Of a stretch of 64,000 nucleotides of DNA, positions 10,706 to 60,968 are shown in pieces. Below the pieces are notes generated by a model, which was not told the origin of the DNA, made no database searches, and worked only from the letters and a program-made list of their open reading frames with translations. The position numbers and the translations under genes were made by a program. The stretch's first letter is position 1. The number at the start of each line of letters is the position of its first letter. Source of the stretch: a virus (Duplodnaviria; Caudoviricetes); IMG/VR virus record IMGVR_UViG_3300012007_000014, positions 17,522 to 81,521 of that record, one strand, 5' to 3'.

Positions 10706-11119
10706 TTATAGCCCTAATTCCTCAAGAAAATACACATTACCTGTCTCCATGCCCTTATATATTGTCCCACTTTTGAAAAGAGGTAATACAACCTCTGGAC
10801 TATCATCAAGAATAATAACGATGCGCTGGTATACGCATCCTTCAGGGTTATCAAAGTTTACAAAATCCACTTTGCAAATAAAACTAACTTTGTCTCTGAA
10901 CGGCTTAATGACTGCACTCAAATACTTCTTTTCTGCATCGTTAAGGATCTGTTCTTGTTCATGCTCCTTATCAAGCCATCTTTTAAGCGAGGGAATGTAC
11001 TGTCCTCTTACTAAGATTTTGTCATTCAGAGAAATAACAGTATCGCCATTGCTGTCAAAGGAAAAGAGCAAATCACCAAACTTATACCCATTCTTAATCA
11101 TCCATTCTGCATTAGTCAT
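10706..11119 (-). CDS. Phage hypothetical protein, tandem copy B
   Basis: Paralog of 11116-11502 (MTNAEWMIKNGYKF...LEELGL). Confidence 0.75.
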   Translation of the reverse strand: MTNAEWMIKNGYKFGDLLFSFDSNGDTVISLNDKILVRGQYIPSLKRWLDKEHEQEQILNDAEKKYLSAVIKPFRDKVSFICKVDFVNFDNPEGCVYQRIVIILDDSPEVVLPLFKSGTIYKGMETGNVYFLEELGL

Positions 11120-11502
11120 AACCCTAACTCCTCAAGTGTGTATTCTTTGCCAAGTTCCATTCCTTTGTACATGGTATTGGATTTAAAATCCGGGAAAATC
11201 ATTTGGAAACCAATATTAATTACTATATATTCTCCTTTGCCATTCAATTTTGGATTTTTCGTAATACTTCGTACTCGATCTCTGAACGGCTTAATGACTG
11301 CGCTCAAATACTTCTTCTCTGCATCGTTAAGGATCTGTTCTTGTTCATGCTCTTTATCAAGCCATCCGAAAGGAACGTACCCTCCTCTTACTAAAATTTT
11401 GTTATACAGAGAAATGATAATATCTCCACTACTGCTGTCAAAGCAACAGCACAAATCACTGAACTTATACCCATTTTTAATCATCCATTCTGCATTAGTC
11501 AT
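11116..11502 (-). CDS. Phage hypothetical protein, tandem copy A
   Basis: Paralog of 10706-11119; ATGA-coupled. Confidence 0.75.
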   Translation of the reverse strand: MTNAEWMIKNGYKFSDLCCCFDSSSGDIIISLYNKILVRGGYVPFGWLDKEHEQEQILNDAEKKYLSAVIKPFRDRVRSITKNPKLNGKGEYIVINIGFQMIFPDFKSNTMYKGMELGKEYTLEELGL

Positions 11503-11526: not shown

Positions 11527-11776
11527 TTTCTGATTTATCTTTGCACCACAATTTGAGCATGCTACATTAGTGTATCCAATGTCCATGTACTCCTGGTTCA
11601 TTTTCAAGTAGAAACCGAATCTTTTCTTTTTCTTTCGTTGAGAAAAACGAACTATTTGCAATCTTATTCCATAATGAGTCTGCACGAATCCATTTAGATT
11701 CCATTGGTTTTGTCACATCAATCTTCTCTACCAATTGCATTTGCCATTCCTCCGTGACGTCAATCTTCGTTTTCAA
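11527..11776 (-). pseudogene. Probable frameshifted Zn-ribbon protein
   Basis: ...HGHWIH* in one frame continues as TNVACSNCGAKINQK* in another. Confidence 0.4.
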
Positions 11777-12089
11777 AGAGGGTTTTCACAAGGTCCAGCT
11801 TCTGCTTTTTACTCCACCGGTTTGCATTCCGGGCAATCAAATGCTGTGTGTAATTGTACTCAAGCTCCGGATCATTAGAATCCTTCTCATTCCCCAGCAG
11901 ATAATCCGTGGTGGTGTGCAGTGCCTTGGCAATATTGACGAGGATAGGACCCTTCGGTACCCGGTCGCCTTTGATATACCTGGATATAGACACCTCAGTG
12001 GTGCCGACCTGTTCAGCAAGCTCTTTTTGAGTTTTGCCTTGTTCCCTCAGTAATCCGGCGATTCTCTCTCCAATAATGTTCTGTGCCAT
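11760..12089 (-). CDS. XRE-family HTH regulator
   Basis: LLREQGKTQKELAEQVGTTEVSISRYIKGDRVP...TTTDYLLG. Confidence 0.9.
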   Translation of the reverse strand: MAQNIIGERIAGLLREQGKTQKELAEQVGTTEVSISRYIKGDRVPKGPILVNIAKALHTTTDYLLGNEKDSNDPELEYNYTQHLIARNANRWSKKQKLDLVKTLFENED

Positions 12090-12139
12090 GTTTTGTTCCT
12101 CTTTTTCATTAAAATTCATTATTTTTATCTCCATTTTAT

Positions 12140-12976
12140 TCAATGTGTACGTACTTCTGGTTCAATATTATTGTTTTTAGACTCAGATGTCTTTCCTTTC
12201 TTGGCATCCTTAACTGCCTTATCTATAAGGTAATCCAGAACAAGTCTCTGCTTTTCATTAAGTGTGTCAATAACGTCCAGAATAGTTTCCTCACCCTCAA
12301 CTACCTTACCTACAATGTAATACAGAACAAATCTCTGCTTTTCATTGAATGTGTCAAAAACGTCCTGAACAGTTTCCTCATTCTCAGGAGCACTCTTCTT
12401 AGTAGTATTCTGAGTCATCGTATCATCATTTCTCATTGAGATCTTAAAAACAGGACGAACCCCGAAGGCACTCGAGGCGGCCCAGCCGTCGACAGCACCG
12501 CGACTGCTGACAACGCAGAAATACGTCGAGGACGCCTTCTCCTTGTTCTGGAGCCATCCCCATTCATACTTGCCTCGCCGCGAAGCTAATCGATTGCGTC
12601 GGTCCTGCATAAGCGGCCACTGCTCATGACCGTCCGGCTCGTACCATTCTGGTAGCTTATCGCCGAACATTTCACCCGCAAAAGGAATGCGGAGTAGATC
12701 ACCATTTTCAAACGGAACCATACGATAACGAATGCCTTTAAAAACATCGATGGCCTCATTACTTTGTAATCTTTTCCGTAAATCGCTTTCCAGGTATCCT
12801 CCATTGTTAATGTCCACCGCATTCATTTCCATTGGCTTATCAAGGTATTGATCTAAGAGAAATATTGCTGCAATCTGCGTAATTTCCTGGCAAGTAGCTG
12901 TATAATGACCAACATGAATCTGGTCGCCGATTTTAAAGCAGTTTGTCTCTGTTTCTATAACACGATTCACTTTCAT
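12140..12976 (-). CDS. C-type-lectin-fold (DUF6273-like) protein with two C-terminal capsid-scaffold-like repeats
   Basis: GGYLESDLRK, WGWLQ...FCVVSSRG...ASSAFGVRPVF typical of DGR targets; ETVxDVxDTxNEKQ twice. Confidence 0.7.
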   Translation of the reverse strand: MKVNRVIETETNCFKIGDQIHVGHYTATCQEITQIAAIFLLDQYLDKPMEMNAVDINNGGYLESDLRKRLQSNEAIDVFKGIRYRMVPFENGDLLRIPFAGEMFGDKLPEWYEPDGHEQWPLMQDRRNRLASRRGKYEWGWLQNKEKASSTYFCVVSSRGAVDGWAASSAFGVRPVFKISMRNDDTMTQNTTKKSAPENEETVQDVFDTFNEKQRFVLYYIVGKVVEGEETILDVIDTLNEKQRLVLDYLIDKAVKDAKKGKTSESKNNNIEPEVRTH

Positions 12977-13895: not shown

Positions 13896-14426
13896 TTAAG
13901 TTATAACACCATCCTTTATACACTGTTCTGCACGGCACAAGAAATTATAATAGTATCCGCAATATTTACACTTGTCTGGAATCTGGAAATTACTCAGTGG
14001 GTCTTGCTTTTTAATGATATGCTCTCCTGTTTCCGTGCCATGCCAGTGAAGATTCCCAGCCGTATCTTCATATTTTGCAAATACTTCTTCCATAAACAGC
14101 ACTCCATCCTTTCTCATTGAGATCAGAAAAATCGGCCGAAACCTAGAAATCTCCGAGTTATCCCAGCCGCAGCCATATGGGATCTTGAGCATATCTCCAT
14201 CTTTAAATGAAACCATCTGATCACGGATATCTGCAAAGTCATTTAGCACCTCTTCACTTTGCAATGCCTCTCGCAAACAACTATTTTCAGTAATATATTG
14301 ATCTAAGAGAAATAGTGCGGCTCTTGATGAGATATTCTGGCACGTCGCTGTATATTTACCAACGTGAATCCGGTCATCAACATGAATATCATTTGTTTCG
14401 ATCTCCATCATTCTTTCGACTTTCAT
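13896..14426 (-). CDS. Internally deleted paralog of 12140-12976
   Basis: MKVERMMEIETNDIHVDDRIHVGKYTATCQ...FLLDQY...RPIFLISMRKD; lacks the VR-like segment. Confidence 0.65.
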   Translation of the reverse strand: MKVERMMEIETNDIHVDDRIHVGKYTATCQNISSRAALFLLDQYITENSCLREALQSEEVLNDFADIRDQMVSFKDGDMLKIPYGCGWDNSEISRFRPIFLISMRKDGVLFMEEVFAKYEDTAGNLHWHGTETGEHIIKKQDPLSNFQIPDKCKYCGYYYNFLCRAEQCIKDGVIT

Positions 14427-14492
14427 AATCAATCCTCCATTAATGAAAAAATATGGACCTTGAAATTCCAAAGCCCATACTTTTTGTTTCAC

Positions 14493-26562: not shown

Positions 26563-27327
26563 TTATAACCTCCACCACCTTGGAATGATAGATAACTTTG
26601 TAATAGAATCTGAATAGGAAATCACATTCTTTTTTCCAAGATACATTTTATCGAGTCCAGATGGAAGTGAAAATGTGGATTTGGAATTGAGATTTTCTGT
26701 TCCGTGATAGACATTCATCATGTCGCAATCAACAGTTGCATCAGACTCTACTGTTACCAAAAATGTTCCATCTTCATTTTGAATAGTAACTGTTCCTTTT
26801 CCTTCAATCATAATTATTGGAAAGGCGATAAAAGAAGTAGGATTGAATAATGTAAGCCCTTTTTCAATTATCACAGGAATTTCTCCATACTTCAGGAATC
26901 TCTGTGGTTTACAATTAAACTTAATATTCACCATTCCTGCTTCCAACGAATCTATCATTGACGGACTAAAATCTTGTGAAATATAAGCCATTCTGTATTC
27001 GTCTGGATGCCAAGTATCTTCCAGCCTTTTGTAACCGATTGGACCAAACAGCCATTCTCTTACTGCTGCAAGTCTTTGATCCATATCAAATGGATACCAT
27101 TCTTCTGGAATAAAGCCTACACCATCGTAAGTAACATCGGTGTCATCATAGTATCCCTTGTCAATTAGCAAAGATCCATTTCTTCCTGGAATTTGAACAG
27201 TATCATAAGCCCTTTTGGGAGCACCATAGGTACCCCCGCCAGAGCAAATAAGGCGAAAATCAGAAGAGGCTTTTCCATTAAATATAAAACACTTTTCCGT
27301 GAGCAAATCTCCAATATTTAAGCCCAT
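26563..27327 (-). CDS. Distal tail protein (Dit)
   Basis: FIFNGKASSDF, IPGRNG, FNCKPQRF, IIPRWWRL; follows tape measure. Confidence 0.85.
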   Translation of the reverse strand: MGLNIGDLLTEKCFIFNGKASSDFRLICSGGGTYGAPKRAYDTVQIPGRNGSLLIDKGYYDDTDVTYDGVGFIPEEWYPFDMDQRLAAVREWLFGPIGYKRLEDTWHPDEYRMAYISQDFSPSMIDSLEAGMVNIKFNCKPQRFLKYGEIPVIIEKGLTLFNPTSFIAFPIIMIEGKGTVTIQNEDGTFLVTVESDATVDCDMMNVYHGTENLNSKSTFSLPSGLDKMYLGKKNVISYSDSITKLSIIPRWWRL

Positions 27328-30300
27328 ACTGATTCCCTCCTTCCAACTGCATTGTTAATATTTTGAGAAACACCATTTGTTACTGCACCTGCAATTTCTC
27401 CACTATCAAGAACAATTTGCATCTTAGACACTGCATTTCCAAGATTCACAACGTCTTCTCTCAAAGATGTAATTGCAGAAACAACATCTCCATTCGAGAT
27501 TCTTCCAAACATTCCATTTAATCTATTAAGCTCAGAATCTTTCGGTGTTGTTACATTTCCAAGATTCGGATTCAAATTAATACCATAGGATCCGTTATAC
27601 ATCGAAGAAATAAGACCTTGACTAGCATAAATATTTGAATAGTCAACAACAGGTGTAATGGTAGGATTTGCACCAAGATCTGCATCTAATGCTGATCCAA
27701 CAATAGAACCAATATTATTTGCAACTTCAGAAATTCTATCAGAACTAGAGTCAAGACCTCTAATATAACCCTCATCCATAAATTGACCAAGCTTAAACAT
27801 TACTCTTGAAGGAGAATGGATTTGGTTCATACTAGCGACTGTGGATGACAGCTCAGTCGCGATCTCATTACAAAGAGCATCAAATTCTTCTTTCTTAGAA
27901 TTAATACCATCAATAAGTCCTTGCATCAGATTGGAACCAGCATTAAACATGTTGCCTTCCTGAGCTTCTACAGATTTCACCATTGAAGATGCATAATCTT
28001 TGCCGTTCTTACTACCTTCAGAAGAATTTACCTTCTTATCAATTTCAGAAGTTGCCTTATCTGCAATCCCCTTGGATGCATTTGCAACCGCTGCTTCATT
28101 CTCCTGATATCCAGTTTGAAGACCAGTTGCCATATTGGTAGCAATCGTTGATGCTGTCGTTTGAGAAGTTTGTGAAATCGTTTCTGTATCATTAGAAAGA
28201 GCAGCCTGAATGGACTGACCAAAGAGCGCTGCTGCTTCTGTACCCATAGAAATAAGAGCAGGATCAATAACAGTGCTAAAGTTTGTCACCATTGTCTGAA
28301 CTGTTGTTGCAAGAGCGTTAACATCAGACATAGCCGCTGATAATGCTTGCTGATAGGTTTGACCATTCATGGTACCCGCATCAAGCCATTGCTGAGAAGC
28401 TTTCGCTTTTGCATCATCACCAATCGTGGTTGCCCGTTCATACATGGCATTTGCACTACTTACTTGATCAGACGTCCATTGTGTTGCTGCTGCAAGATAT
28501 TCAGGTCCCTGTTCTGCAAGCTGTTCCAAAAGTCCAGAATTAAGTCCCTTTGCCTCAAGAGCAAGATAGTTTTGTAACTCTTTTTCAGCTTTATCAAGGT
28601 TCCCTCTCATTCTAGTAATAAGTTCATCACCAGAAATTTGATCTTGCTTGTCAGAAAGTTCTGCATAAAGATTTGTATTATCAAGAACAGATTTAATAGC
28701 ATCACCAACTTCATTTGCAGTAAGCTTAAACTGTTCTACAAGCTTAGAAGACTCGGTTGCTTTCTTGAACACCTTATCAAAATTCTTAACAATATTATTT
28801 GTAAGAGCGTCCTGAATGGTAGTTCTATCTTCCAGAATGGCTCCTAGTTGCTCTTCTGTAATGCCATAATTTTGAGCAGCCGTTGCAAGGTCATCAAACG
28901 CCTGTCTTGCCGTATCGTTATCAGGACCAACCTGAGCAATAAAGTCTTGATAGTTAAGAGCTGCCATTAAGAACTCATTGGAAACATCTCCAATTCCATC
29001 AATGGCATTTCCAAATATTCCAGACTCACCAAGATCCATGCTCTCACCAAGAACATTGGTAACGTTTTCTACACTATCTTTGAACGAACTAACAGCAGTC
29101 TCGCCAAGCTCCTTGCCAGCTACTTTCACTGCATCTTTTCCATCGTCCATAGAACCGGCAATATTACTCACAGCATGATCTGCTGCTTTTGTTGCCTCTT
29201 CGTCCATTTGAGCTGCAGTAAGATTTAAATTCTGATACTCTTTGTTGAGTTGAGTAATCTTTTTCTTAGCGTTCTCTGCATTCTTAATTTCATTTTGATA
29301 TTCTTTGTTCGTATTCTTTTCAACCCACAGAGAATACTTTTCAAACAGATCTTGTTTCTTTGCAGATACTTTAAGAGCTTCTTTATAATCCTTGTAATTA
29401 TCATTAACTTTCTTAATCCATTCGTCTCCCATTTTCCCTGCTGCGATAACAGTACCTTGACCTTGGGAAATAAGCTCTTGAAGTGCTTCCTGGTTAAGAC
29501 CTCTCTGCCTAAGGCTTAAGATTTCCAATTGATAGTCTTTAATTCCAGCAACACGTTTTTCAAGATTGGATAATAACTGCTTACCAGTAACATTAGAAGA
29601 AATATCAAGAGATTCAAATGCTCCACCAAATCCTTCAATGGCATCTTTCATTGCAGAGCCAAATGCTTTTGCCTTAGACTCATACTCAGAAAGCTTACTC
29701 ATTGCATTGTCGAATTGTGTGTAAGCTTCTTGAACATCTGAAATAATAACAGTCTTTAAAATATTAGTTGAGTCAATAGTTTGATGAAGATAGCCATACA
29801 AGTCACTAAGACTCATTCCAGCTGCATCTGCATACTTCTTAAGCTCTCCGTATGCTTTCTCAAGTCCAGAATGATCATATGCATCACTATCAAGAGCGAT
29901 TCCCATTGCCTTGACTTTGTTCTCTTCTCTAAGAGTGTCAACGTAAGCCTTGGTCATCCCATCAAGCTCTTCATAAGTCTTAAGACCATCTTCTTTCATC
30001 TTGTTCAAATATAAAGCAACCATTCTAGCATTTTCTACTCTAACCGTTGCTTCTTGAGCAAGTTTTTCAGCTTTGGCTTGATAACCAAGGAAATCCTTTA
30101 GCTCACTATTCGACATCTGCCGAAGTTCCATGATCTTCTGATAATTCTCAAGAGGATTAGAACCAAGATCAGCAAGTGTATCATCGTCCACACCTCTATA
30201 AGCAAGAGAGGTAAGAGCGTCTGTGGATTCTCGCAGTGCGTCGACTTGAGACTTTGCATTCATGATAAGTTTGTCTGGCTTTATCATGTCGGAAGTCTTT

Positions 30301-33300
30301 TTATCAAACTCTGTATAAAAGTCTAATGATCCTTTAATTGCATCTGAGATCTTATTGAACGCTTCCACAAAGGCTTCTCGTATTGCATTCGCCCTTTGCT
30401 GAAGAGCAGTACCTTTTTCTTCAGAGTCTTCATAGACCTCATCTGCTTTATTACTTGTTTTATAAATTTCAGAAAGTAAGAGTTCAAACCCTTCTGCTCC
30501 AATTTGATAAGAAGTAGAATCGGAAACGGTACTCATCATAGAGCCAAAGGAAGAGGTGAATTTATTAATGATTGGAATTGCCCTTTCATTAAACTTCTCA
30601 AGAGTATTCTGGAACTCCTCAAGAGCCCTGGTATTGTCTTTTGCAGATTTAGATCCGCCACCAGACCCTTTTCCTTTCTTTTTAGAGCCAGAATCTCCTC
30701 CACCACTGCCTCCAAGATCAGGAGTCGTGCTAGGCGATCCAGTTTTGGAGTCTCCTTTACTTGCAAAGTCAGACCAAGAGAACGGAAGGCCAGAATCGTT
30801 TTTAGCTCCACTCTCCCAGCTTCCCTTTTGATAAACTCGCTTCATCTTTCCGGTCTTAGGGTCTTTTTGCATAACCCATTTGCCCTTGGTCCAATGCTTC
30901 GCACCATTGTTCTTTTTGGTACCTGTTCTGAAGCTAATTTCTCCTTCTGTACCAGTGCCAGCACCAACATAACCAAGATCAAGAGAGCTCATAGCAGCTC
31001 TTGCAGAAGAGACATACCCAAGAATATTGGATAAGAAACTGGAGCCCATGAGATCTCCAATATTACCACCAGTAATACCAGCAAGAGAAATATCACCACT
31101 TGCAATGCCACTCGTAAGTTCAGATATCATGGAACCACCAGTGCCATTTCCATCAAAAGCACCGGAGAGTTTATCCTTTGCCATAGAGCCAAAGTTTTCC
31201 ATAGCAGTAGAAGCAGGGACTTCACCAGAAATAACACCTTTAACAAGTTCCAGCATATTGGACTTGCCAGTATTTTCTGCATCTGCTCCTTCTGTTACGC
31301 CTTCTGATGCTGCGCTGCCAACTTCTTGACCTGCATTTTGAGCATCGTCAGATGTACTAGCAACACCACTTGCTGTTGCACTGCCAAAGTTCTCACCAAG
31401 CTTTGCACCATCCTTAGGATTTAATGTATCAGCAATGCTACTTGCAATATCAGAAGATGCGGCTTTCACTTTAGGAACACCAGCCTCTAGTCCTCCTGCA
31501 AGCATTGAAGTAAAATCTGGCATCCAACTGTCAGAGTTAGCAAGAGGTCCTTCATCAGGTGTTGAGAAGTGAAGGAATGATGCAATCGCGCTTGCAATAC
31601 TTGATGCAGCATTTTTCACAAGATCAATACCTGCAGAAATACCATCCGCAAGCTTCTGTGCAAGATCCATTCCCCATTGTGCAGCTTCTTCTGATACCTC
31701 TTTAAGGGAGATAAGAAAACCAGCTACCTGCTCTGCAACAGAGACAATTACAAGTAAGACAGCACCAAGTCCAGCAGCAAATATTAATAATCCTACTCCC
31801 GCAATACCGCCACCAGCTCCGATTGCAATAAGTGACAATCCAAGCAGTGTTAATGCTCCTGCCATGAGTGCAAGGCTTCCAGCCTGATCGGATAGTGCTG
31901 CCATTGCAGTTACAAACGCTGTGACTTGAGGAAGGAGTGCTGCAATTCCCTTTGTAATTAGCATAATACCAACTCCAAAGAGTGCTGCTCCAGCTCCAAA
32001 GCCAACAAACGCTGCTGCAATAGAAAGAATAACAGCAGCAAACGCCAAGATTGCTGGAGTTGCTAAAGACAGTCCAGTTCCAAATATCCCAACAACAGCT
32101 GTTAGTGCAACCATGATTCCCATTAAAACGCCTATTACGATAGCAACTTGTGTAAGCCTATCAGCAGGAATCTGTGCAAGCATTGTCATAGAGACAGCTA
32201 AAATAGCAACTGCTCCAGCAAAAGCTATCATCATTACAGAAATTCCAAGTGATGCAATTGCAGACATGTTTTGACCAATGGTCATCATGACACTCATGCA
32301 AATTGCAAAGACAGCCATTGTCGCGTTTAATGCTAGAGCCACTCCTAATAAATCTTGAGCTGGAATCTGCGCTACTAGTACAAGAGCAAGTGATAGAATA
32401 GCAACTGCGCCACTAAATGAAAGGACTGTAACTGCAAAAGCTCCTATATCAAGAGCTGTAAAACCTTGAACGATATTTGCAATCAAGGCAATTGACGCTG
32501 ACATTGCAAGCATCATCATGGACAAAGATTCTGCTATTGTTATTGCAGCATCCACGTTCTGAAGACCTGCAAGCGCAGTGACAATTTGACTCATTGCATA
32601 AATTGCAACTGAGAAAGAACCAATTGTAGCAATAAAAGCAACGATGTCGAGCCCTTTCATGTCTTTTGTAACATCCCCTACAATCTTAATGGCAAGTCCA
32701 AGAGCAAGCATCATACCAGCAATCTCTGCTGCTGCAGCAATGGATTGATCCATAGGCAAGGCTGCTAAATTAATAGCCATCTTTCCCATCATCTGAATTG
32801 CAAGAAGCATTACTCCAACAATTGGAATAACATTAAGAGGCTTTGCCTTGTCCATAAGCTTGACAGAAAATGCTAAAGAGATCATCATTCCTGCAACAAG
32901 AGCAAGACCTGCTGCCATGGGTTTCCAAAGAGCACCCATAATAGCCATGATAGGTGCAAGAATATACATAGCACCTGCAAGAGCAAGCATAGTACCTGCT
33001 ATCTTTCCAACTTCTGCACCATTCATAATCTTAATGGACCATGCTGCGGCAAACATTCCACCAGCCATAATTAGAAGACCCTTACCAATCGTAAAAAAGT
33101 CAGCTTTTCCAAAAAGTGTTACTGCTGCAGCAAATATAATAAACGCACCAGAAAGAGCAAGCAAAGATGTAGCAATGGATTTTAAGGTTGGAACTCCGGC
33201 AGAAAATGCAAAAATTGAAAGGACTGTAAGTACACCAACAAGTCCAAGAAGAGCAATACCAAGTCCTTGAAGTGCTTTTATAGGATTTCCAAGCTGTGTG

Positions 33301-36300
33301 CTAAGAACAGAGATAGCAACGCTCATTCCAATTAAGGATAGAGATAAAAGTCCAATCGATGCTGCTATCTGTATGGTTAAGTCATTAAAGGCATTAACAA
33401 CTGCCTTTAATCCTATGAAAATAACGACAACTGCAGCAATTGAACCTGCAAGTTGTCCAAGAAATGCAACAATTCCTCCAACCTCTCCAAATAATGCTTG
33501 AAGAGCTTTTATATGAGCGAATATCAATCCTCCAATAACAGTCATCTCTTGCATAAAGAGTCCTGCCTGCACAACTATAATCTTAATTGCCATATTCATA
33601 AAGACAATAGAAGCTGCAAGAGCTGCAATGCCAGCTGCCATTTTGAGCATGGAAATAGAAGCCTGTGAAATCTTATCAGAAAACTTAGCAAACGTTGCCA
33701 TCACGACAATAAGTGCTGCAAATCCAGCTGCCAAGATTCCAACTGGAACGACAATTCTTGCAAGGAACTCCTGCCAAGTTTGAATGTGATTGTAGAGCAC
33801 ATTTACAGCAACTGTAGTAACACCAAGCTCAATGCCAAGAACTGCAAGTACACCAGCAAAGGAAGTCATGGCAAGTGTAAAAGCACCAAGACCCTTGGTA
33901 TTAACCTTTCTAGAAAGAACCGTTGTCAAATATGCAAGAGCTGCTGCACAACCAGTGATTGTGATAGTAAGACGAGCAATCGTTGCTGCTGCTCTTTCAA
34001 ACCGTTCCGGATCAATTTGAACAACAGAAAGTGCAATGAGTGCTGCTGTAAGAATACCAACGCCAATTGCAATGTTTCTAAATGTCTTTGCACCATTAAT
34101 TGCTGTGAGCTGTACGAAATATCCTCTAATTGCACCAAGAGTCTTCTTTAAAGAACCTCCAAGTGTATCAAAAGCATCACCAAATGTCTGGAAGGAATCT
34201 GTTAACTTCTTTAAGTAACGAATAAACAGCAAGATATATCCAAAGGCAAGGATCTGCTGCCAATCCATTTCATTTATCTTAGTAATAAACTTTCCGACAA
34301 GAGTGTCAGTTTGCCCAGCAGCTTTCACAGCATTACTTGCATTTAGTGCAAAAGACTTAAGAGTTTCAACAATTGTGGCAAAGATTGATTGACTCTTTTG
34401 GAGTGCGGGGGTTGTCTTCTCAATCTTCTTTCCAAGAGCACCCATCTTATCTGCAGAAGCACCAATAGTATCTCCAAAGGATCCAACTGTTTCGGAGTGC
34501 TTAGAGAACTTGTTTATAATTGAAGATATGGAAGATTTTACATTGTTAATTGCATCATTTAAGCTAATCTCTCCTTTTGCAAGAGAGAAAATAGATTTCA
34601 CAAAGGAAGAGATTGCTGTTCCAGCGATGAGAAGACCTCTTGCTATTGTTCCAAAAATATCATTTGAACTTGCAAGTTTTGTGATAAAACTTACAATACT
34701 ATCTTTCATCTGAATAATAACAGTGACAATTGCAGAAAGATTCTTTTTAACCCCATTCCAATCAATGGATTTAATCTTCTGAATGAGTAAAGAGATACCA
34801 ATAATTGCAGCTCCAACTACTGTCTGAAGAACTGCTGCAGCAACTCTAAGACCTTTCACAATTCCTTGGATAACTTTAGAAGAAGAAAGTTTCTTTATAA
34901 TTGGCTCTACCTTTTGAATAAGAGAGCTAATTACAGAAGATACTCCTCCAACTGCTTCTCCTGTATCCTTAAAGCTCTTATTAAGTCCAAGAACTGTTTT
35001 TAACAAATTGAAGGATAAGATAATCTTAAATAATGAGATAATTGTATTAAGGCCAAGTCCTCCCATAAACAAAGACTGCAATGCTTTAATAGCAGTCGTG
35101 ATAAGAAGGAAGGACATAATCGGTTTTCTAAAAGCAAGGATTACTTCAAGACCCGTTTTAATAATAGAGAACGTTGTCTTAGCAACTTCCTTGAGATCCG
35201 CCATTTGATCCTTGGTAAGGATAAGGTTTCTAGTAAAGCGCTCAATAAAGTCTGTAATAGCCATGAGTCCTTTTGCAGAGTTTACAGATCCTTGAACATA
35301 CCCTGTCACCTCTTGCAAAGCCTCTCCTATTGGCTTTAAAACACTCCAAATCGCATTGAAAATATTAGCAATGGATTGGAGCATCTCCTTTCTTCCACCC
35401 TCTGCTTTCCAGACAGCAAGCATAGAGTTTCTAAAGTCAGACACTTTATTGATGGCATTTCCTAAAATGTTAGAGATTCCAGTCCAAAGCCCTTTTGCCT
35501 CTTCGAAATCACCAATGACAGTTCTAAAACTCTGTGTCCATCCAGATCCAATTGCTTCTCCAAGGGTGTCCACCAACATGGAAAATGTTTTGACATCTTT
35601 TGCGGCATCAGCAGCTTTCATTCCAAGTTGCTCAAACTGCTTTATTTGAGTAGCAGTAAATCCTTGAGCTTTAAGTCTCTTCTCATAATTCTCTTGCTCT
35701 ACTTTTGTTAAATCTCTTATGTCTGTTGCATAAAGTTTAAGAGCAGTTGTCAGGGTATCATTGGTAAGCCATTGATATTGAAGAGAATCATTAAAACCTT
35801 TCTGAGCATTGAAGAGTTCTGAAATATCACCCTTCATGTTCGTTGTTACGGTTCTGTAACCACCACTAACTTTCTTAACTGTACCAAGTGCTTCTGCTGT
35901 TTGAAGGAGCGTATTCTTAAACTCTACGGTAGCCATCATAGAGTTCTCAATAGATTTCCAGTCGATGAGTTTTGTATAACCAGAAGACAGTGCCTGAGCA
36001 AAGTTATACATAGCATGAGAAGCTTGTTGTGCATTTGCTCCAGAGATAGCGGCCTCATTAGCAATACCTTTAATGGCAGCCACTGCATCATCAAGTTTAA
36101 CTCCCTGATTCGTAAATTTACCGATATTGGAAGTCATATCTTGAAACTTATAGATGGTATCATCTGAGTATTTGTTTAACTCATCAAGCTTTTTATTTAC
36201 TCTTTCAACAGATTCTCCTGTTCCAGCCATAATGGTTTGAACAGATCCCATCATGTCTTCGTATTCCTTGAAGCCTTCTCTTGGACCAGACGTGATCATG

Positions 36301-36611
36301 GAGAGTCCTTTATGGACGAAGCTGCTTACGGAATTTCCAATATTACGAAGAACTTGATCAGAAATTGTACCAAGTGTAGAAAACTTTTTGGTCATGACAT
36401 CAAGAGAACTATTCATTTGATCAAAAGAAGAGTTCGCCTTGGATAACTGACCTTCCATTCCAGAGAACATCTCTTTTCCAGTTTTCTTGGTGTTCTCTTC
36501 AATGGTATCGTTTAATTTATTTAGAGATTGCAGAGTTTCCTGAATACCAGCTTCGAATTGTTTGTTATCGAATTGCATCTGCACAACTCTTTGATCAACT
36601 TGTGTTGCCAT
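27318..36611 (-). CDS. Tape measure protein (3097 aa)
   Basis: Tape-measure domain (LNKYSDDTIYKFQDMT..IGKF..QG), long Ala/hydrophobic helical region, position. Confidence 0.93.
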   Translation of the reverse strand: MATQVDQRVVQMQFDNKQFEAGIQETLQSLNKLNDTIEENTKKTGKEMFSGMEGQLSKANSSFDQMNSSLDVMTKKFSTLGTISDQVLRNIGNSVSSFVHKGLSMITSGPREGFKEYEDMMGSVQTIMAGTGESVERVNKKLDELNKYSDDTIYKFQDMTSNIGKFTNQGVKLDDAVAAIKGIANEAAISGANAQQASHAMYNFAQALSSGYTKLIDWKSIENSMMATVEFKNTLLQTAEALGTVKKVSGGYRTVTTNMKGDISELFNAQKGFNDSLQYQWLTNDTLTTALKLYATDIRDLTKVEQENYEKRLKAQGFTATQIKQFEQLGMKAADAAKDVKTFSMLVDTLGEAIGSGWTQSFRTVIGDFEEAKGLWTGISNILGNAINKVSDFRNSMLAVWKAEGGRKEMLQSIANIFNAIWSVLKPIGEALQEVTGYVQGSVNSAKGLMAITDFIERFTRNLILTKDQMADLKEVAKTTFSIIKTGLEVILAFRKPIMSFLLITTAIKALQSLFMGGLGLNTIISLFKIILSFNLLKTVLGLNKSFKDTGEAVGGVSSVISSLIQKVEPIIKKLSSSKVIQGIVKGLRVAAAVLQTVVGAAIIGISLLIQKIKSIDWNGVKKNLSAIVTVIIQMKDSIVSFITKLASSNDIFGTIARGLLIAGTAISSFVKSIFSLAKGEISLNDAINNVKSSISSIINKFSKHSETVGSFGDTIGASADKMGALGKKIEKTTPALQKSQSIFATIVETLKSFALNASNAVKAAGQTDTLVGKFITKINEMDWQQILAFGYILLFIRYLKKLTDSFQTFGDAFDTLGGSLKKTLGAIRGYFVQLTAINGAKTFRNIAIGVGILTAALIALSVVQIDPERFERAAATIARLTITITGCAAALAYLTTVLSRKVNTKGLGAFTLAMTSFAGVLAVLGIELGVTTVAVNVLYNHIQTWQEFLARIVVPVGILAAGFAALIVVMATFAKFSDKISQASISMLKMAAGIAALAASIVFMNMAIKIIVVQAGLFMQEMTVIGGLIFAHIKALQALFGEVGGIVAFLGQLAGSIAAVVVIFIGLKAVVNAFNDLTIQIAASIGLLSLSLIGMSVAISVLSTQLGNPIKALQGLGIALLGLVGVLTVLSIFAFSAGVPTLKSIATSLLALSGAFIIFAAAVTLFGKADFFTIGKGLLIMAGGMFAAAWSIKIMNGAEVGKIAGTMLALAGAMYILAPIMAIMGALWKPMAAGLALVAGMMISLAFSVKLMDKAKPLNVIPIVGVMLLAIQMMGKMAINLAALPMDQSIAAAAEIAGMMLALGLAIKIVGDVTKDMKGLDIVAFIATIGSFSVAIYAMSQIVTALAGLQNVDAAITIAESLSMMMLAMSASIALIANIVQGFTALDIGAFAVTVLSFSGAVAILSLALVLVAQIPAQDLLGVALALNATMAVFAICMSVMMTIGQNMSAIASLGISVMMIAFAGAVAILAVSMTMLAQIPADRLTQVAIVIGVLMGIMVALTAVVGIFGTGLSLATPAILAFAAVILSIAAAFVGFGAGAALFGVGIMLITKGIAALLPQVTAFVTAMAALSDQAGSLALMAGALTLLGLSLIAIGAGGGIAGVGLLIFAAGLGAVLLVIVSVAEQVAGFLISLKEVSEEAAQWGMDLAQKLADGISAGIDLVKNAASSIASAIASFLHFSTPDEGPLANSDSWMPDFTSMLAGGLEAGVPKVKAASSDIASSIADTLNPKDGAKLGENFGSATASGVASTSDDAQNAGQEVGSAASEGVTEGADAENTGKSNMLELVKGVISGEVPASTAMENFGSMAKDKLSGAFDGNGTGGSMISELTSGIASGDISLAGITGGNIGDLMGSSFLSNILGYVSSARAAMSSLDLGYVGAGTGTEGEISFRTGTKKNNGAKHWTKGKWVMQKDPKTGKMKRVYQKGSWESGAKNDSGLPFSWSDFASKGDSKTGSPSTTPDLGGSGGGDSGSKKKGKGSGGGSKSAKDNTRALEEFQNTLEKFNERAIPIINKFTSSFGSMMSTVSDSTSYQIGAEGFELLLSEIYKTSNKADEVYEDSEEKGTALQQRANAIREAFVEAFNKISDAIKGSLDFYTEFDKKTSDMIKPDKLIMNAKSQVDALRESTDALTSLAYRGVDDDTLADLGSNPLENYQKIMELRQMSNSELKDFLGYQAKAEKLAQEATVRVENARMVALYLNKMKEDGLKTYEELDGMTKAYVDTLREENKVKAMGIALDSDAYDHSGLEKAYGELKKYADAAGMSLSDLYGYLHQTIDSTNILKTVIISDVQEAYTQFDNAMSKLSEYESKAKAFGSAMKDAIEGFGGAFESLDISSNVTGKQLLSNLEKRVAGIKDYQLEILSLRQRGLNQEALQELISQGQGTVIAAGKMGDEWIKKVNDNYKDYKEALKVSAKKQDLFEKYSLWVEKNTNKEYQNEIKNAENAKKKITQLNKEYQNLNLTAAQMDEEATKAADHAVSNIAGSMDDGKDAVKVAGKELGETAVSSFKDSVENVTNVLGESMDLGESGIFGNAIDGIGDVSNEFLMAALNYQDFIAQVGPDNDTARQAFDDLATAAQNYGITEEQLGAILEDRTTIQDALTNNIVKNFDKVFKKATESSKLVEQFKLTANEVGDAIKSVLDNTNLYAELSDKQDQISGDELITRMRGNLDKAEKELQNYLALEAKGLNSGLLEQLAEQGPEYLAAATQWTSDQVSSANAMYERATTIGDDAKAKASQQWLDAGTMNGQTYQQALSAAMSDVNALATTVQTMVTNFSTVIDPALISMGTEAAALFGQSIQAALSNDTETISQTSQTTASTIATNMATGLQTGYQENEAAVANASKGIADKATSEIDKKVNSSEGSKNGKDYASSMVKSVEAQEGNMFNAGSNLMQGLIDGINSKKEEFDALCNEIATELSSTVASMNQIHSPSRVMFKLGQFMDEGYIRGLDSSSDRISEVANNIGSIVGSALDADLGANPTITPVVDYSNIYASQGLISSMYNGSYGINLNPNLGNVTTPKDSELNRLNGMFGRISNGDVVSAITSLREDVVNLGNAVSKMQIVLDSGEIAGAVTNGVSQNINNAVGRRESVWA

Positions 36612-42526: not shown

Positions 42527-42820
42527 TTAGGATACACCTCCCATACTAAGAGCAATTGCAGACTCAAGATCTGAAATTCTCTGTCTTAAAATATCAGTTG
42601 ATGTGAAGTTACCGAAGATCACATGGTCCTTACCATCTTCCATAAAGTGCGCGACTACCTTATCGAAATTTGTGGTAACGCCATCAATCTTCATGTTCTT
42701 AATTGTATCGTTTGTAAAGGCGTCACTAGGAACTACAGTATCAAAAATATAATTATTTCCGTTTAATGTAGCTTCGTATGACTTTCCATTACTAAGTACA
42801 ATTGTATGCTTCTCTTCCAT
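42527..42820 (-). CDS. Hypothetical protein
   Basis: LSNG......LNGNNY; GGAGG RBS inside RT 3' end. Confidence 0.6.
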   Translation of the reverse strand: MEEKHTIVLSNGKSYEATLNGNNYIFDTVVPSDAFTNDTIKNMKIDGVTTNFDKVVAHFMEDGKDHVIFGNFTSTDILRQRISDLESAIALSMGGVS

Positions 42821-43889
42821 AAGCACCTCCATATAGAGTGAAAGCATGTGCAAATTGTTCGCTATAAAGGTTGTATAGATTACAAAGTGTTCTTTTGGAG
42901 AGGATCTTTTTAAATGACATTATCCAAGATTTAAATGCATTCTCTACATCTTTGAAACTCATTCTTCCTTGTATGCAGAGCACAAATTGTTTCTTAAGTC
43001 TTCGTCTAAATGAAGAAATTCTTTTTGGATTCATGCGCTTGCAAAGATGACCTGATTTTGAGAGTCTGTAGCGAATCTGTAAGAAAGTAAACCCTCTAGA
43101 TAGCTTATAAATATGTGTTTTACGAGTATTGACGTGAATACCAAGTTTGTTTGCAACAAGAATAGCTTTCTTCAAGAGAGACTTTAGAAACTCTTTTGAC
43201 TTATGAACAATGCAAGAATCATCCATATATCTATCATAGTTTCTAATATGTTTTACAACTTTAAAGAACGTATCCCAAATTGTAGGAAAATAAACTCCAA
43301 ATATCTGAGAACATTGATCTCCTATTCCGCATGATATTGGCTTACTATTAATTTCAAAGTTCTTAAGAATTGTTTTGATAAGCCAAATACAATCGGCATC
43401 AGTTAAATGCTTTTTCACTTGTTCCAATAGCTTATCATGTGGTATGGAATCATAATACTTCTTGAAGTCAATGATTAGGATATACCCATCATTTCCATGA
43501 TTCTTTCTGTAAAACTCATGGATCTTCTGCTCAAATCTACGTCTTGTGAATCCGATTCCTTTCCCTCTTACAGAAGCACCATTGTCATGAATGAGATATG
43601 GGTATAAAGCTGGTTCTAAGACATAATCACAAAAGCATCTTCGTATGACTCTATCATAGAATGGATTGCTTCTAATATATCTTATCTTTCCGCGCTCTCT
43701 TATTGTGAATTCTTTTCCTTTTCTTGGCTTATAAGTCTTTTCTTCAAGCTCTTGTCTTGTTTTTACAATATTAATAAGCCAATTTTGCTCGTAAATTTGA
43801 ACGGAAGACTTCCAATCTGAGCCATTTTTAGACTTTTTGTAGGAATCATAGAGATGATTTAAATCTGTAAGTTCACTATATCCCTCCAT
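42792..43889 (-). CDS. DGR reverse transcriptase
   Basis: RGK.R.I, DRV, GKG, DFKKYYDSIPH, GIGDQCSQ (DGR-type SQ), RYMDD; adjacent TR and avd. Confidence 0.95.
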   Translation of the reverse strand: MEGYSELTDLNHLYDSYKKSKNGSDWKSSVQIYEQNWLINIVKTRQELEEKTYKPRKGKEFTIRERGKIRYIRSNPFYDRVIRRCFCDYVLEPALYPYLIHDNGASVRGKGIGFTRRRFEQKIHEFYRKNHGNDGYILIIDFKKYYDSIPHDKLLEQVKKHLTDADCIWLIKTILKNFEINSKPISCGIGDQCSQIFGVYFPTIWDTFFKVVKHIRNYDRYMDDSCIVHKSKEFLKSLLKKAILVANKLGIHVNTRKTHIYKLSRGFTFLQIRYRLSKSGHLCKRMNPKRISSFRRRLKKQFVLCIQGRMSFKDVENAFKSWIMSFKKILSKRTLCNLYNLYSEQFAHAFTLYGGAYGREAYNCT

Positions 43890-44069
43890 AAACAATAATT
43901 CCTTTATATTTATTAGCCTTAAATTAGAGTGGAAATTAGTCGGCTAGAGATAACAGACGTATCTGATCTCATCTAATATGGAGATATTCTCCACCCACTC
44001 CTTTATTTCTCCATTTAGCTGGAAGGGACTAAATCTCCTTCTCCTGATCCATTTCTGAACCAAAAGAAT

Positions 44070-44159
44070 CCCAAAACGCTGTTCCAAGTATTCGAAGCGT
44101 TGTTCCTATTCGCGTTACCATTGTTGTTGACATTCGCAAAGTTAGATGCTGACACAACG
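44070..44159 (-). repeat. DGR template repeat (TR)
   Basis: AAC/AAT-rich; 71/90 identical to VR 44786-44875; 17 of 19 mismatches at TR adenines. Confidence 0.96.
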
Positions 44160-44174
44160 GAAAAGTTTACAGAT

Positions 44175-44675
44175 CTAGCCCACAGGAAAGTAAACTCCTT
44201 GCTTTTCCTGATTTTTCTTTAACTTTCTAAATTGTTGTAAATCTTTGTTTTTAATCGAACGAAGTAAGTCAATTTCTTTGACAATCAGTTGGGTAAGCCG
44301 ATAATACTTATTAATATTTACGTCTATATTTTGAGCACGAGAAGTTTCTATAAAAGTCATACAGACTTGTTCCAATTTATAGCAAGCCGCAATTGCTTTT
44401 ATTAATTGTTCTCTTCTATACTTCAGATCAATGTCCGTTACAACCTTGCAGCATCCAGCATTAGAAACTCTAAGATGAAGTTCTCTTACTTGTTTATACA
44501 TATCGTCTCTTGCAAGTGTGATATAATTGATAAAGACCTGAGGGTAATTGCGTGCTTTTGCTGTATCAATACCTAAATCAGTAAGGACGTAATTTAATAA
44601 TTCATTCTTGATCTGGTGAGTTACATGAAACGCTTCGTTACAAGATGGTTTCCTCTCACCTTTCTTAACACTCAT
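44175..44675 (-). CDS. avd: DGR accessory variability determinant (four-helix bundle)
   Basis: MSV.K.ER start, all-helical basic 166 aa, position between target and TR. Confidence 0.8.
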   Translation of the reverse strand: MSVKKGERKPSCNEAFHVTHQIKNELLNYVLTDLGIDTAKARNYPQVFINYITLARDDMYKQVRELHLRVSNAGCCKVVTDIDLKYRREQLIKAIAACYKLEQVCMTFIETSRAQNIDVNINKYYRLTQLIVKEIDLLRSIKNKDLQQFRKLKKNQEKQGVYFPVG

Positions 44676-44725
44676 TGTTATCTCCTATTGTTCTGCCCGA
44701 TAATATCAGAATAGGCTGAAAACGG

Positions 44726-44757
44726 CCTCGCTTCGCTCGGATCGCTGCGTACGCAGC
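44726..44757 (-). promoter_or_regulatory. DGR target-recognition hairpins downstream of VR
   Basis: Palindrome GCTGCGTACGCAGC (44744-44757) and CCGAGCGAAGCGAGG (44726-44740). Confidence 0.7.
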
Positions 44758-44766
44758 TCGTAATTT

Positions 44767-45645
44767 TTAATGGATCAGGTAGTAGCCCAAAACGCCGTAC
44801 CAAGTAAACGAAGCGTAGTACCTATACGCGCCACCATAGTAGTCGACACCCGCGAAGTCAGACGCCGACACGACGTCTCTTAACCAAATACTTATTTTTC
44901 TATTCATACTTGACTGATCAAACTTAAAAAGTGCAATCTGATTCTTCGAGCATCCAGTATTATATAGACCTGCTCCAGCATTATTTGCGCCGTTTACAAC
45001 AGTCCCATAATACATTGCTTCGTTGAAGATGTTATAAATTGTGTCTACCCATTCACCACCAGTAGGAACACCATCTGTAACAGCATTTGAAATGTACTCT
45101 CTATGTTTTAAAAGATGATTTCCAAATGCTGTAGTAATATCGGGAAGAATCTGATTTGGAATTGTAGTATTCCACATCTTTGAACCCTTAAATCCACCAG
45201 CAGTGGTATCGGTATCATTCATGAAATGCGTAGTTGATCCATCTGCAGTAAGATCTACACCATCGTCAACCATTAAAAGGTGATGACCTAATTCGACGTT
45301 ATCTCCACAATGAATGAAGTAATCGATATCACCAATGCGTCTTGTCTTTCCATTAATCACCCAGTAATCACCAACATACATATCTGTAAAGGTGCCATTC
45401 TGTACTGCTTGTGACTGCTCGGTTGTGAAAGAAGTTCCAAGATTCTTTCCTCGATAGATCATTCTATGAGAAATTGCAGGAGGGCAAAGCTCCATGATTG
45501 CCCTAAGATCTGCTGCCTTTGCAGCGACATTGTCCTGAAACTTCGATACTGGCATTCTTCTAAGTCCTGAAGTAGCTCCTGTAATCAGGACACTATCATC
45601 CGAATTAAACCCGCTAGTTGATGGATAATTGTTTACTTGACTCAT
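44767..45645 (-). CDS. DGR target protein, C-type lectin fold, probable receptor-binding tail protein
   Basis: VGDYW..NG, GG..GS.M, WLRDVVS...A.V....G.A...AS....GV; VR at C-terminus. Confidence 0.9.
   Translation of the reverse strand: MSQVNNYPSTSGFNSDDSVLITGATSGLRRMPVSKFQDNVAAKAADLRAIMELCPPAISHRMIYRGKNLGTSFTTEQSQAVQNGTFTDMYVGDYWVINGKTRRIGDIDYFIHCGDNVELGHHLLMVDDGVDLTADGSTTHFMNDTDTTAGGFKGSKMWNTTIPNQILPDITTAFGNHLLKHREYISNAVTDGVPTGGEWVDTIYNIFNEAMYYGTVVNGANNAGAGLYNTGCSKNQIALFKFDQSSMNRKISIWLRDVVSASDFAGVDYYGGAYRYYASFTWYGVLGYYLIH
44786..44875 (-). repeat. DGR variable repeat (VR)
   Basis: Adenine-specific variant of TR; encodes VVSASDFAGVDYYGGAYRYYASFTWYGVLG. Confidence 0.96.
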
Positions 45646-45660
45646 TTATTTTATTCTCCT

Positions 45661-47925
45661 TTATGCTGTAGCAATAGAAGCCTTTAAATCTTCTATCTGC
45701 TTATCCATTTTCTTTACTCGAAGCCGGTACCAATTCTCAATCTGTGCAAAGTCCATCCCATTTGGTTCTGTTCTAAAGAGTCTCCTGTCTGCTTCAATTG
45801 CATTCATTGGAATCTTGCGAATAAAGCTTAGGAACTCTCTATAAACATTCTCTTCAGAAAACACGGTTGAGCGCAGATATTCATACCTGTCAATTAGTCT
45901 TTGGGGATCATAAGTCCAGATCATATGCATTGCTCTGTTGTGACCATCCCAGCCTTTAAGCGATGGAGATCCTTCATCTGGTCTCCAAAGAAGATTCGGA
46001 TTTTTAGAATCAGGGCACCAGTTTCCCCAAGTCGTATCAAGGTCGTAAGCGGAAAAGAACCATTTTGTTCCGTCATATGTCACAAGAAGCCAGTTCTTAC
46101 CAACATCATCCGCTGCATTAATGAGGGAACTGAAGATCATGTAATCTACAACAGAATCGTAGTCCAAATACTGTGCAGAAACCTTCTTATAATTTGTATC
46201 TTTGTTATCCTTACCAGTGCTATCAACAACAGACTGAATCATGGTATTAAGAGATGCTCTAAACTTTGTGTTATCAGCTTCATACTTAGACAGATCTTCC
46301 TTGTAAGCATCATCATCTACACCCTTGTCATAATCAGAAGGCTTTGGTTTTTCATTTGGAATGCACTCATAAGTCCATGCAGTCGATTTCCCAGAAACGT
46401 CTTCACCTTCTTCTGCGTCCACGACTAAGTTTGCCGCCTTAAATCCACCAGCACCATCTGTTCCAGCACCTTCATTAGACACAACGCATTCCGTCTTCTT
46501 ATACTGCTTATACTGACCAATTCCAAACATATCTTTGTCTTTCGCAATCAGCATTGTGTAAAGACCGATATACTTCCCATTTGCAATAATGTATATAGGA
46601 AATCCATCATAGGTTCCATGATTAGGATAGACATCAATAGGATAAGAAGGAACTGTTATAGCATCTCCATTTTGATCAAGCAGTTCTTCTTTCTTCTCAT
46701 CAAGAAGGGATTCGTAGGAAACGTTCGGTCTTGATGCAACACACTGTGCCCAAAGCCGTCCTGAAACCGCATTTCTAGCCCAAGTAGGATCATTCCAGCA
46801 AGATTTGAATGTGTACTTCTTTGAAGGAAGCCAATCATTTTTTGCAAGAAATTTATCAGCAAATGTGATGCTATAATTCTTCTTAGGAAGTCCAGACGAA
46901 CTTTGTCCCTGAACGCCAATCTTTCCAACACCAACGAGATCCTGTCCATTAATATCTTTAAACTGATACCTTACTTTAAACTTACCCTCACCCTTACTTT
47001 TAGGAATATGTCCATAGACATAAAGAATTGGGATTACAACGGTTTTACCGCTCCATCCCCAAACGTTCCATCTATTTTCTGTTTCCGGATTAAATAAATA
47101 GTCCTTTACTCCAGAAAGTGCAGGCCCTGATAAAACTAAATCTGTTCCATTTGCAATGATCGGATCACCAATTTCATCAAGAATTGGTTCTAGTTTCTCA
47201 TCCAGAACATAATCATATTGCTTTGTGCTGAATTCAGACGTGAAGTTATTTAGTTTATTTAACGCAGACTCAATAGCAAATAACCTATCGCCGACTGTCT
47301 TTGAATCAGCGCTTGCCCACTTAATGGAAAGAGAGTCATCAACAATATTGACACCCGGTGAAATGTGGTTAAATATCCATTGATTCACCGTAGATCGTGC
47401 AACATTGTTCATATTGGCAGTTGCTGCTGTAACCAAGCTATTGGCCTTTGTATTCATTTGGTCAATAGCCCCATTAATATTAGTAGCTGCTTCTTTCTGA
47501 ATATCTGGGATGACACCCATAATATAGTTTAGAATGTTCTGATATACGGAGACATCTTCTGTATAGGTCACACCAAGACTAAAGGTTGCATTCTCAACAA
47601 GAATTGCAAAGTTCGCTGTTCCAACCGTTCCAATAGTGATCTCTGCAAGGCAAGGACCTGCAATAACAGTCATTACTGGTTTTAAAGGGAAGCTAACTGT
47701 TGATCCAGAAACTGTTACTGGGAAAGGACCCCAATTTGCTCCATCTGATCGAACGCCATGCACAGAACAGACATAAGAAGAACAGTCAAATAATTCTCCA
47801 CCATTCATCACTTCAAATGAAATGACAGAATCAAAGTCTCCACATGAGCAATGAACTACAGTAGGAGCACTGATCCCCGGTTGTATATCTATTGTATGTT
47901 TCTGTGTTATTGCCATAATTGTCAC
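45661..47925 (-). CDS. BppU-like baseplate N-terminus fused to CotH-family kinase domain
   Basis: N-terminal VVHCS.GD..S.I.F; KIGVQGQSS...PKKNY, NA..G.LW, G.P......G.YIGLY, NW...YD......AYDLD.TWG. Confidence 0.8.
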   Translation of the reverse strand: MTIMAITQKHTIDIQPGISAPTVVHCSCGDFDSVISFEVMNGGELFDCSSYVCSVHGVRSDGANWGPFPVTVSGSTVSFPLKPVMTVIAGPCLAEITIGTVGTANFAILVENATFSLGVTYTEDVSVYQNILNYIMGVIPDIQKEAATNINGAIDQMNTKANSLVTAATANMNNVARSTVNQWIFNHISPGVNIVDDSLSIKWASADSKTVGDRLFAIESALNKLNNFTSEFSTKQYDYVLDEKLEPILDEIGDPIIANGTDLVLSGPALSGVKDYLFNPETENRWNVWGWSGKTVVIPILYVYGHIPKSKGEGKFKVRYQFKDINGQDLVGVGKIGVQGQSSSGLPKKNYSITFADKFLAKNDWLPSKKYTFKSCWNDPTWARNAVSGRLWAQCVASRPNVSYESLLDEKKEELLDQNGDAITVPSYPIDVYPNHGTYDGFPIYIIANGKYIGLYTMLIAKDKDMFGIGQYKQYKKTECVVSNEGAGTDGAGGFKAANLVVDAEEGEDVSGKSTAWTYECIPNEKPKPSDYDKGVDDDAYKEDLSKYEADNTKFRASLNTMIQSVVDSTGKDNKDTNYKKVSAQYLDYDSVVDYMIFSSLINAADDVGKNWLLVTYDGTKWFFSAYDLDTTWGNWCPDSKNPNLLWRPDEGSPSLKGWDGHNRAMHMIWTYDPQRLIDRYEYLRSTVFSEENVYREFLSFIRKIPMNAIEADRRLFRTEPNGMDFAQIENWYRLRVKKMDKQIEDLKASIATA

Positions 47926-60967: not shown

Positions 60968-60968
60968 T

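Follow-up and report, generated by a model that had tools for sequence, protein, structure and literature searches.

The last ~95 residues of P0002, a DUF6273 protein of a tailed phage (G000), were shown by nucleotide and protein alignment to be a recently captured segment of the spacer of a protease-capsid fusion gene, with a G001-type relative as the donor. In the alignment, the captured piece amounts to one 'scaffold peptide' unit, almost complete but lacking its flanking hydrophobic-x-His sites, and its 29-aa helical core was later duplicated in tandem. That the tail is a recent capture, as judged from its divergence, is the new finding of this study. We tentatively propose that the tail is a scaffold-mimic docking tag that would load the lectin domain into proheads. 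The window, i.e. the whole stretch of DNA that was analysed, is 64,000 nt long, and the features discussed below are collected in Table 1.

Table 1. Positions in the window of the P0002 gene, the capsid precursor gene and related features
Feature	Position	Strand	Remarks
P0002 gene, DUF6273 domain plus captured helical tail	12140-12976	-	278 aa
P0002 N-domain, DUF6273/C-type-lectin-like	12437-12976	-	aa 1-180; ends with the invariant GVRPVF
P0002 junction leader '...DTMTQNTTKKSAPEN'	12380-12427	-	aa 184-199; derived from G001-type capsid spacer
P0002 helical unit copy 1	12293-12379	-	aa 200-228
P0002 helical unit copy 2	12206-12292	-	aa 229-257
P0002 basic 'AKKGKTSES' stretch and variable C-terminal end	12143-12205	-	aa 258-278; capsid-spacer derived
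XRE-type HTH gene, downstream	11760-12143	-	abuts the P0002 stop codon; longest ORF overlaps by 4 nt
DUF6273 short-form paralogue, tail-less	13896-14492	-	middle of lectin domain deleted; C-terminus Cys-rich
P0001, protease-spacer-major capsid protein fusion	50010-52076	-	688 aa; Peptidase_S78 and phrog_3270 at 9e-187
P0001 spacer helical unit 1	51441-51530	-	aa 183-212
P0001 spacer helical unit 2	51180-51269	-	aa 270-299
DGR reverse transcriptase	42792-43895	-	RVT_1, 2.5e-13
DGR TR	44065-44159		78% identical to VR over 95 nt
DGR VR	44781-44875		3' end of ORF 44767-45645(-)
DUF7211-tagged proteins	55663-56502, 56596-57237, 60203-60991, 62089-63429		

The DUF6273 protein and the capsid precursor

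The open reading frame of P0002 and the two C-terminal peptides quoted in the initial annotation were found as described there, and a repeat search recovered the 87-nt tandem direct repeat that underlies them (12205-12291 and 12292-12378, 85% identical). The two units are C-terminal, spanning aa 200-257 of 278, and alignment with homologues indicated that the end point after the 'AKKGKTSES' stretch varies. The neighbours of the gene are early/middle genes, including those for HTH regulators and a dUTPase. The same region contains two tandem paralogues (10706-11119 and 11116-11502; 137 and 128 aa) whose N-termini are nearly identical and whose stop and start codons overlap.

The N-terminal domain had been described as a lectin fold, and this description held at the level of family assignment. 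The profile phrog_21980 matched P0002 at 2e-27 over aa 1-178, and 29 of the 30 ESM-Atlas clusters nearest to P0002 were DUF6273 proteins. Pfam DUF6273 (PF19789) gave a partial match to P0002 itself, at 17.4 bits and under the 23.5-bit cut-off, and is present on many homologues that are 60-70% identical to P0002. The DUF6273 domain has been reported to be C-type-lectin-like and a frequent target of diversity-generating retroelements (DGRs) (PMC10743442). The AlphaFold model of full-length P0002, which was built on a shallow alignment of 25 sequences and had a mean pLDDT of 51, was too poor for a fold search and could not confirm the fold.

Residues 152-169 of P0002 (12470-12523) correspond to a VR-like patch that is hypervariable across the family, with an entropy of more than 3 bits in 118 DUF6273 homologues. 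The commonest residues in these columns belong almost entirely to the NNC/NNT set, a DGR-like signature that applies at the family level only. The patch sits at the C-terminal end of the lectin domain, which is the canonical VR position in DGR targets such as BPP-1 Mtd and the DUF6273 proteins of Faecalibacterium and gut phages (PMC10743442, PMC11792537). Unlike the genes for these targets, the P0002 gene lies in the early region and was not matched by the resident TR, and the sole TR/VR pair found joins that TR to the VR listed in Table 1. We know of no DGR target that carries a capsid-spacer tail. The resident DGR cassette (42792-45645) is complete and is located between the head and tail genes. 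Two further genes have an unusual place between the capsid genes and this cassette, one encoding a CotH kinase-like protein of 754 aa (45661-47925) and the other an endolysin-like protein with Amidase_5/NlpC-P60 and SH3 domains (48390-49175). The tail module includes a single 3,097-aa ORF (27318-36611), presumably for the tape measure protein, which is very long for an 81.5-kb genome.

P0001 consists of an S78 prohead protease, a very acidic spacer and an HK97-type major capsid protein. As had been noted, both motif copies occur in this capsid precursor, where they are the only non-acidic islands of the spacer; the stretch between them is 79% Asp/Glu. P0002 and P0001 matched in BLASTP at E = 2e-7, and the P0002 tail matched the phrog_3270 profile only at spacer positions 164-207 (E = 2.4e-11). 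By these matches P0002 is not a member of the protease-major capsid fusion family and bears a fragment of one. A profile of the four copies, run against the six-frame translation of the window and the whole 81.5-kb genome, found no carriers beyond P0001 and P0002.

On the ORF map, the interval from the portal gene to the P0001 gene contained no separate gene for a scaffold. We infer that the P0001 spacer acts as a scaffold and that the unit, the conserved helical element of the only scaffold-like region in these fusions, may be regarded as a 'scaffold interaction helix'. To our knowledge, there has been no experimental work on the protease-capsid fusion family. In the corresponding arrangements of lambda, P2 and HK97, maturation removes the helical scaffold-like part, as it would in P0001. 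P0001 resembles lambda gpC/Nu3, P2 gpO and the HK97 gp5 delta domain in having protease, scaffold-like region and capsid functions in one frame, and differs from them in joining all three in one polypeptide with repeated units, poly-acidic spacers and His-marked sites. Protease-capsid fusions have been likened to these systems before (PMC5513430).

The His-marked sites of P0001 (IYH, VEH twice and VKH; 51140-51620, aa 154-312) flank each unit on both sides and also stand ahead of the capsid domain. Such bracketing was seen in all fusion proteins inspected, with 'KHNVF' before the capsid domain, and these hydrophobic-x-His sequences are candidate protease cut sites on the basis of their placement. 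The P0002 tail carries none of them and equals the interior of one inter-His spacer segment. The sole hydrophobic-x-His sequence in P0002 is VGH (aa 22-24), which is non-conserved and lies within the domain.

In the AlphaFold model of the tail alone (pLDDT 75), a short helix, a turn and a long helix occur twice, so that the units are predicted, with moderate confidence, to be two amphipathic helix-turn-helix elements. A Foldseek search of this model against the PDB returned nothing below E = 4.7, and in profile searches of the PDB sequences the unit matched only helix 1 of the winged-helix domain of HrcA, at borderline significance (E = 0.003). A DNA-binding HTH was considered and rejected, since a single helix aligns to HrcA and the remainder of the HTH is absent. 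Weak matches of the Sigma70_r4 type were seen for one small unit protein.

Origin and age of the tail

The relative G001, from IMG/VR, encodes a tailed DUF6273 protein as well as a protease-capsid fusion of 716 aa. The spacer of this fusion contains, contiguously, the leader of P0002, one unit and the basic 'KKGKTSES' stretch, with the leader placed before motif copy 2. At the DNA level, the identity of the G000 tail was 90.5% with the capsid spacer of G001 (90.6% over 139 nt in blastn) and about 80%, over 46 nt, with its own capsid gene. The protein comparison had the same trend, with 21-23 of 29 residues common to the G000 tail copies and unit 2 of the G001 capsid, and 12-15 of 29 common to the tail copies and the units of the phage's own capsid. 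The tail of G001 was 91-93% identical in DNA to G001's own capsid spacer. The initial annotation had suggested that an early-region protein borrows the scaffold motif; the borrowing could be traced to a nucleotide-level copy (~90%) of a capsid-fusion spacer, taken from a G001-type relative and not from the phage's own capsid gene. In some homologues the tail extends into the beginning of the capsid domain ('KKLKHNAF'), which indicates that the capsid gene was the donor and that the captured piece has variable boundaries.

The two parts of P0002 have diverged to very different extents. Between G000 and G001, dS was 1.07 for the N-domain (dN/dS 0.155) and 0.07 for the tail, in which 3 synonymous and 14 non-synonymous changes gave a dN/dS of about 1.3. 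Purifying selection on the tail was undetectable in this comparison. Between the two tail copies, 1 synonymous and 12 non-synonymous differences were counted.

Together with the HTH gene that follows it, the tail makes up one recently exchanged mosaic block with 92% nucleotide identity to G001. Positions 11738-12108 and 11118-11310 were 91-92% identical to G001, and the flanking genes about 75%. A read-through form that joins the tail to the HTH protein (P0262) was also found. The dN/dS of the HTH gene was 0.86 with its non-homologous N-terminus included; such a high value at low divergence indicates that the selection test has little power.

These data are compatible with a neutral origin, in which ectopic recombination added a piece of spacer to a DUF6273 gene at its 3' end and the product has no function related to the capsid. 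The extension would then be harmless, would have been duplicated by slippage and would have spread by hitch-hiking with the HTH block. The low dS of the tail next to that of the N-domain, its dN/dS, the excess of non-synonymous differences between its copies, its position in the mosaic block and its resemblance to the capsid of a relative instead of its own all agree with this explanation, as does the fact that the majority of the more than 1,400 P0002 homologues are ~180-190 aa long and tail-less. Although doubtful when taken by itself, the neutral explanation is nearly as likely as that of a docking tag. The distribution of the unit bears on both.

Carriers of the helical unit

A phmmer search with the 89-aa tail as query, covering 1.84 billion representative proteins, gave only 55 hits, and these matches together with a profile search for longer proteins yielded 179 unit carriers that were classified. 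Protease-capsid fusions made up 113 of the 179, 97 of them with two units. The remainder comprised 34 DUF6273 proteins (long and short forms with 1-3 units), 23 tiny proteins with little beyond two units, two DUF7211 proteins and seven fragments. Among cultured phages, the unit was found only in phages of Gordonia, Arthrobacter and Rhodococcus, in genes annotated as 'major capsid and protease fusion protein', with up to five copies per fusion. As judged from these matches, the unit is characteristic of protease-capsid fusions in phages of Firmicutes and Actinobacteria, usually in two copies.

Outside capsid proteins the unit is rare, being confined to the DUF6273 subclade of P0002, the pair of DUF7211 proteins and a number of tiny proteins with two copies. 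A wide occurrence of the motif in unrelated non-capsid proteins, which the initial annotation had considered as evidence against its proposal, was not observed in the phmmer and profile searches. One JGI metagenome scan gave chance matches only, a scan of GTDB genomes found no relative, and scans of IMG/VR with small-protein or tail queries returned capsid fusions only.

At least 34 distinct tailed DUF6273 proteins, in long and short forms, have 1-3 intact in-frame units. None of this set is truncated within a unit, and their endings past the last unit vary; a short fragment, P0161, does break within unit 1. The core residues T4, V8, T11, Q16 and K/R17 were invariant across 60 tail copies. Both the intact units with variable ends beyond them, with P0161 as the exception, and the invariant core residues argue against a neutral origin of the tail.

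A third argument against it comes from the DUF7211 proteins. P0163 and P0165 carry two diverged units ahead of a hydrophobic-x-His site and a DUF7211 tag, and by their divergence these captures are older than the tail, which argues that the unit is useful outside capsid genes. In the window, a DUF7211-type tag (hydrophobic-x-His-His-Gly-x-x-Gly-x-Lys-Trp-Gly) is common to four proteins encoded just upstream of the terminase gene, adjacent to the head genes. The tag occurs alone in gp6 of Arthrobacter phage Kardesai, which has the same head-module synteny as this window.

Two other proteins, P0248 and P0283, consist of a protease, a collagen-like GPKGPKG stretch and 1-2 units, followed by a true stop common to both clusters. 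They presumably represent a split head gene with the capsid protein encoded separately, and the unit at the C-terminus of the protease recalls arrangements of the lambda gpC/Nu3 type. Most other 'protease plus spacer' matches of 200-455 aa were truncated or frameshifted fusions; only P0248 and P0283 share a true stop. P0123, in which a protease is followed by a DUF6273-type tail, was set aside because its two parts may have been joined artificially in assembly through the segment they share.

Tailed DUF6273 genes were found only in phages with a P0001-type capsid (G000 and G001). Five complete or nearly complete genomes with a stand-alone DUF6273 gene (G002, G007 and G008, which are 100% complete, and G004 and G009) have neither a P0001-type capsid nor the unit. 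This co-occurrence of tail and capsid type is trivially expected if the tail was copied from a resident capsid gene. G006 has a P0001-type capsid and no DUF6273 gene, so the DUF6273 protein is dispensable. A stand-alone DUF6273 relative is located in a replication module, and the short form, which is tail-less in this phage, bears a capsid-derived tail in other phages.

Docking in proheads and other possible functions of the tail

In the docking model, the helix-turn-helix-like unit of the capsid precursor would be the structured part of its delta-domain-like or scaffold-like spacer and would keep protease and spacer beneath the assembling shell. The same unit at the C-terminus of a globular domain would serve P0002 as a docking tag, by which the lectin domain would be co-assembled into proheads. 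In this model, P0002 is an accessory protein of the early/middle region, and its C-type-lectin-like N-domain is of the ligand-binding kind diversified by DGRs. Without a hydrophobic-x-His site of the spacer type, it would escape the dicing undergone by the spacer, may stay in the head as cargo and would be on hand at the next infection.

Co-assembly of P0002 into proheads, which the initial annotation had put forward, is plausible from the arrangement of its domains. In its favour are the topology of P0002, the rare architectures that join the motif to a protease or to DUF7211, and the co-occurrence with the capsid type. P0248 and P0283 also agree with docking, in that their protease, which has to get into the prohead, ends with the unit as its C-terminal tail. 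Furthermore, the tails stay open through the units, the core residues of the units are invariant, the units are predicted to be helical, and most carriers of the unit are capsid precursors. On the other side, the tail is young, constraint on it was undetectable and it may hitch-hike with the HTH block; the units of the phage's own capsid are matched poorly and those of a relative better. The location of the gene among early/middle genes, the stand-alone relatives in replication modules and the dispensability seen in G006 also count against docking. The proposal of a docking tag is therefore a tentative one.

Known systems provide partial precedents. SaPI1 CpmB reportedly bears the C-terminal helical capsid-interaction element of the 80alpha scaffold gp46 and thereby enters the procapsid as it assembles (Dearborn et al. 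2017). CpmB is island-encoded, acts against the helper phage and alters capsid size. P0002 resembles CpmB in that a non-scaffold protein appears, from alignment, to have a C-terminal helical element in common with a capsid-precursor spacer. It differs in being phage-encoded and in that the donor element lies within a protease-capsid fusion.

In T4, a capsid-targeting sequence, common to head-core components, addresses IPI-III and Alt to the prohead; it is an N-terminal peptide of ~10 residues that is removed by gp21. Like this sequence, the P0002 tail is a candidate portable peptide on an otherwise unrelated protein. Unlike it, the candidate tag of P0002 is C-terminal, ~60-95 residues long, consists of a double helical unit and has no predicted cut site.

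The P0002 tail has two features of the P22 gp8 and 80alpha type, namely a predicted C-terminal helix-turn-helix and an element common to a scaffold-like spacer. The C-terminal helix-turn-helix of the P22 scaffold binds coat protein, and engineered cargo-scaffold fusions are used to make P22 nanoreactors (PMC9962691). P0002 has the same order of parts as these fusions, with the globular part N-terminal and the helix-turn-helix C-terminal, an arrangement that in P22 suffices for loading of an HK97-fold procapsid. No similarity to the P22 scaffold in sequence or fold was detected, and P0002 would be a natural capture instead of an engineered fusion.

By extension, phages with fusion heads might load a DGR-type variable lectin by means of a copied helical scaffold unit, as a natural 'cargo-scaffold fusion'. 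This wider proposal is more doubtful than docking itself. If it is true, the unit would be a portable, recently mobilised address label, which would explain the motif-DUF7211 proteins too, and a variable ligand-binding protein would be delivered along with the DNA.

Two functions other than docking were also considered. The first is self-association, independent of the capsid, in which the hairpins would bundle and turn a lectin monomer into a dimer or oligomer of higher avidity. Scaffold segments often bundle with each other. The prediction of two amphipathic helix-turn-helix units, although of moderate confidence, would fit such bundling, and so would the variation in unit copy number from 1 to 3 and the existence of tiny proteins that consist of two units alone. 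It has been suggested that the helical flanks of small DUF6273 DGR targets serve as interfaces for interaction (PMC10743442). However, structure and profile searches matched the unit to no coiled coil or known oligomer fold, and units that bind themselves should also bind the many copies of the capsid precursor, so that cross-talk would be hard to avoid. Self-association is thus an unlikely function for the tail.

The second is interference. The initial annotation had suggested that the protein might poison capsid assembly of related phages. In such a model, an early-made mimic of the G001-type spacer would intrude on head assembly of competing G001-type phages, much as SaPI1 CpmB does with the 80alpha scaffold; alternatively, it would sequester the prohead protease or a host sensor. 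The far closer match of the tail to the spacer of the relative than to its own agrees with this suggestion, as do the early-region location of the gene and the exchange of DNA between the two phage types, which implies that they share hosts. However, G001 itself has a tailed DUF6273 protein that matches its own spacer, which a poison model does not predict, and neither a size-redirection partner nor an island context was found. The better match to the capsid of a relative therefore stands as a point for poisoning, the matched tail of G001 speaks against it, and interference or a decoy function appears quite improbable.

Phages whose heads are built from protease-capsid fusions are common in gut, rumen and soil. 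In the assembly of such heads, the obvious candidate for the scaffold contact is the repeated helical unit. A unit freshly copied onto an unrelated soluble domain offers a simple handle on the assembly of fusion heads. If the tail does not dock, it is still a clean, datable case of a structural-gene fragment moving to an accessory gene. If the tail brings the lectin or a reporter into proheads, the assembly contact would be identified and a natural cargo-loading tag for HK97-fold shells would be at hand, and the variable lectin would join the proteins that phages may deliver with their DNA.
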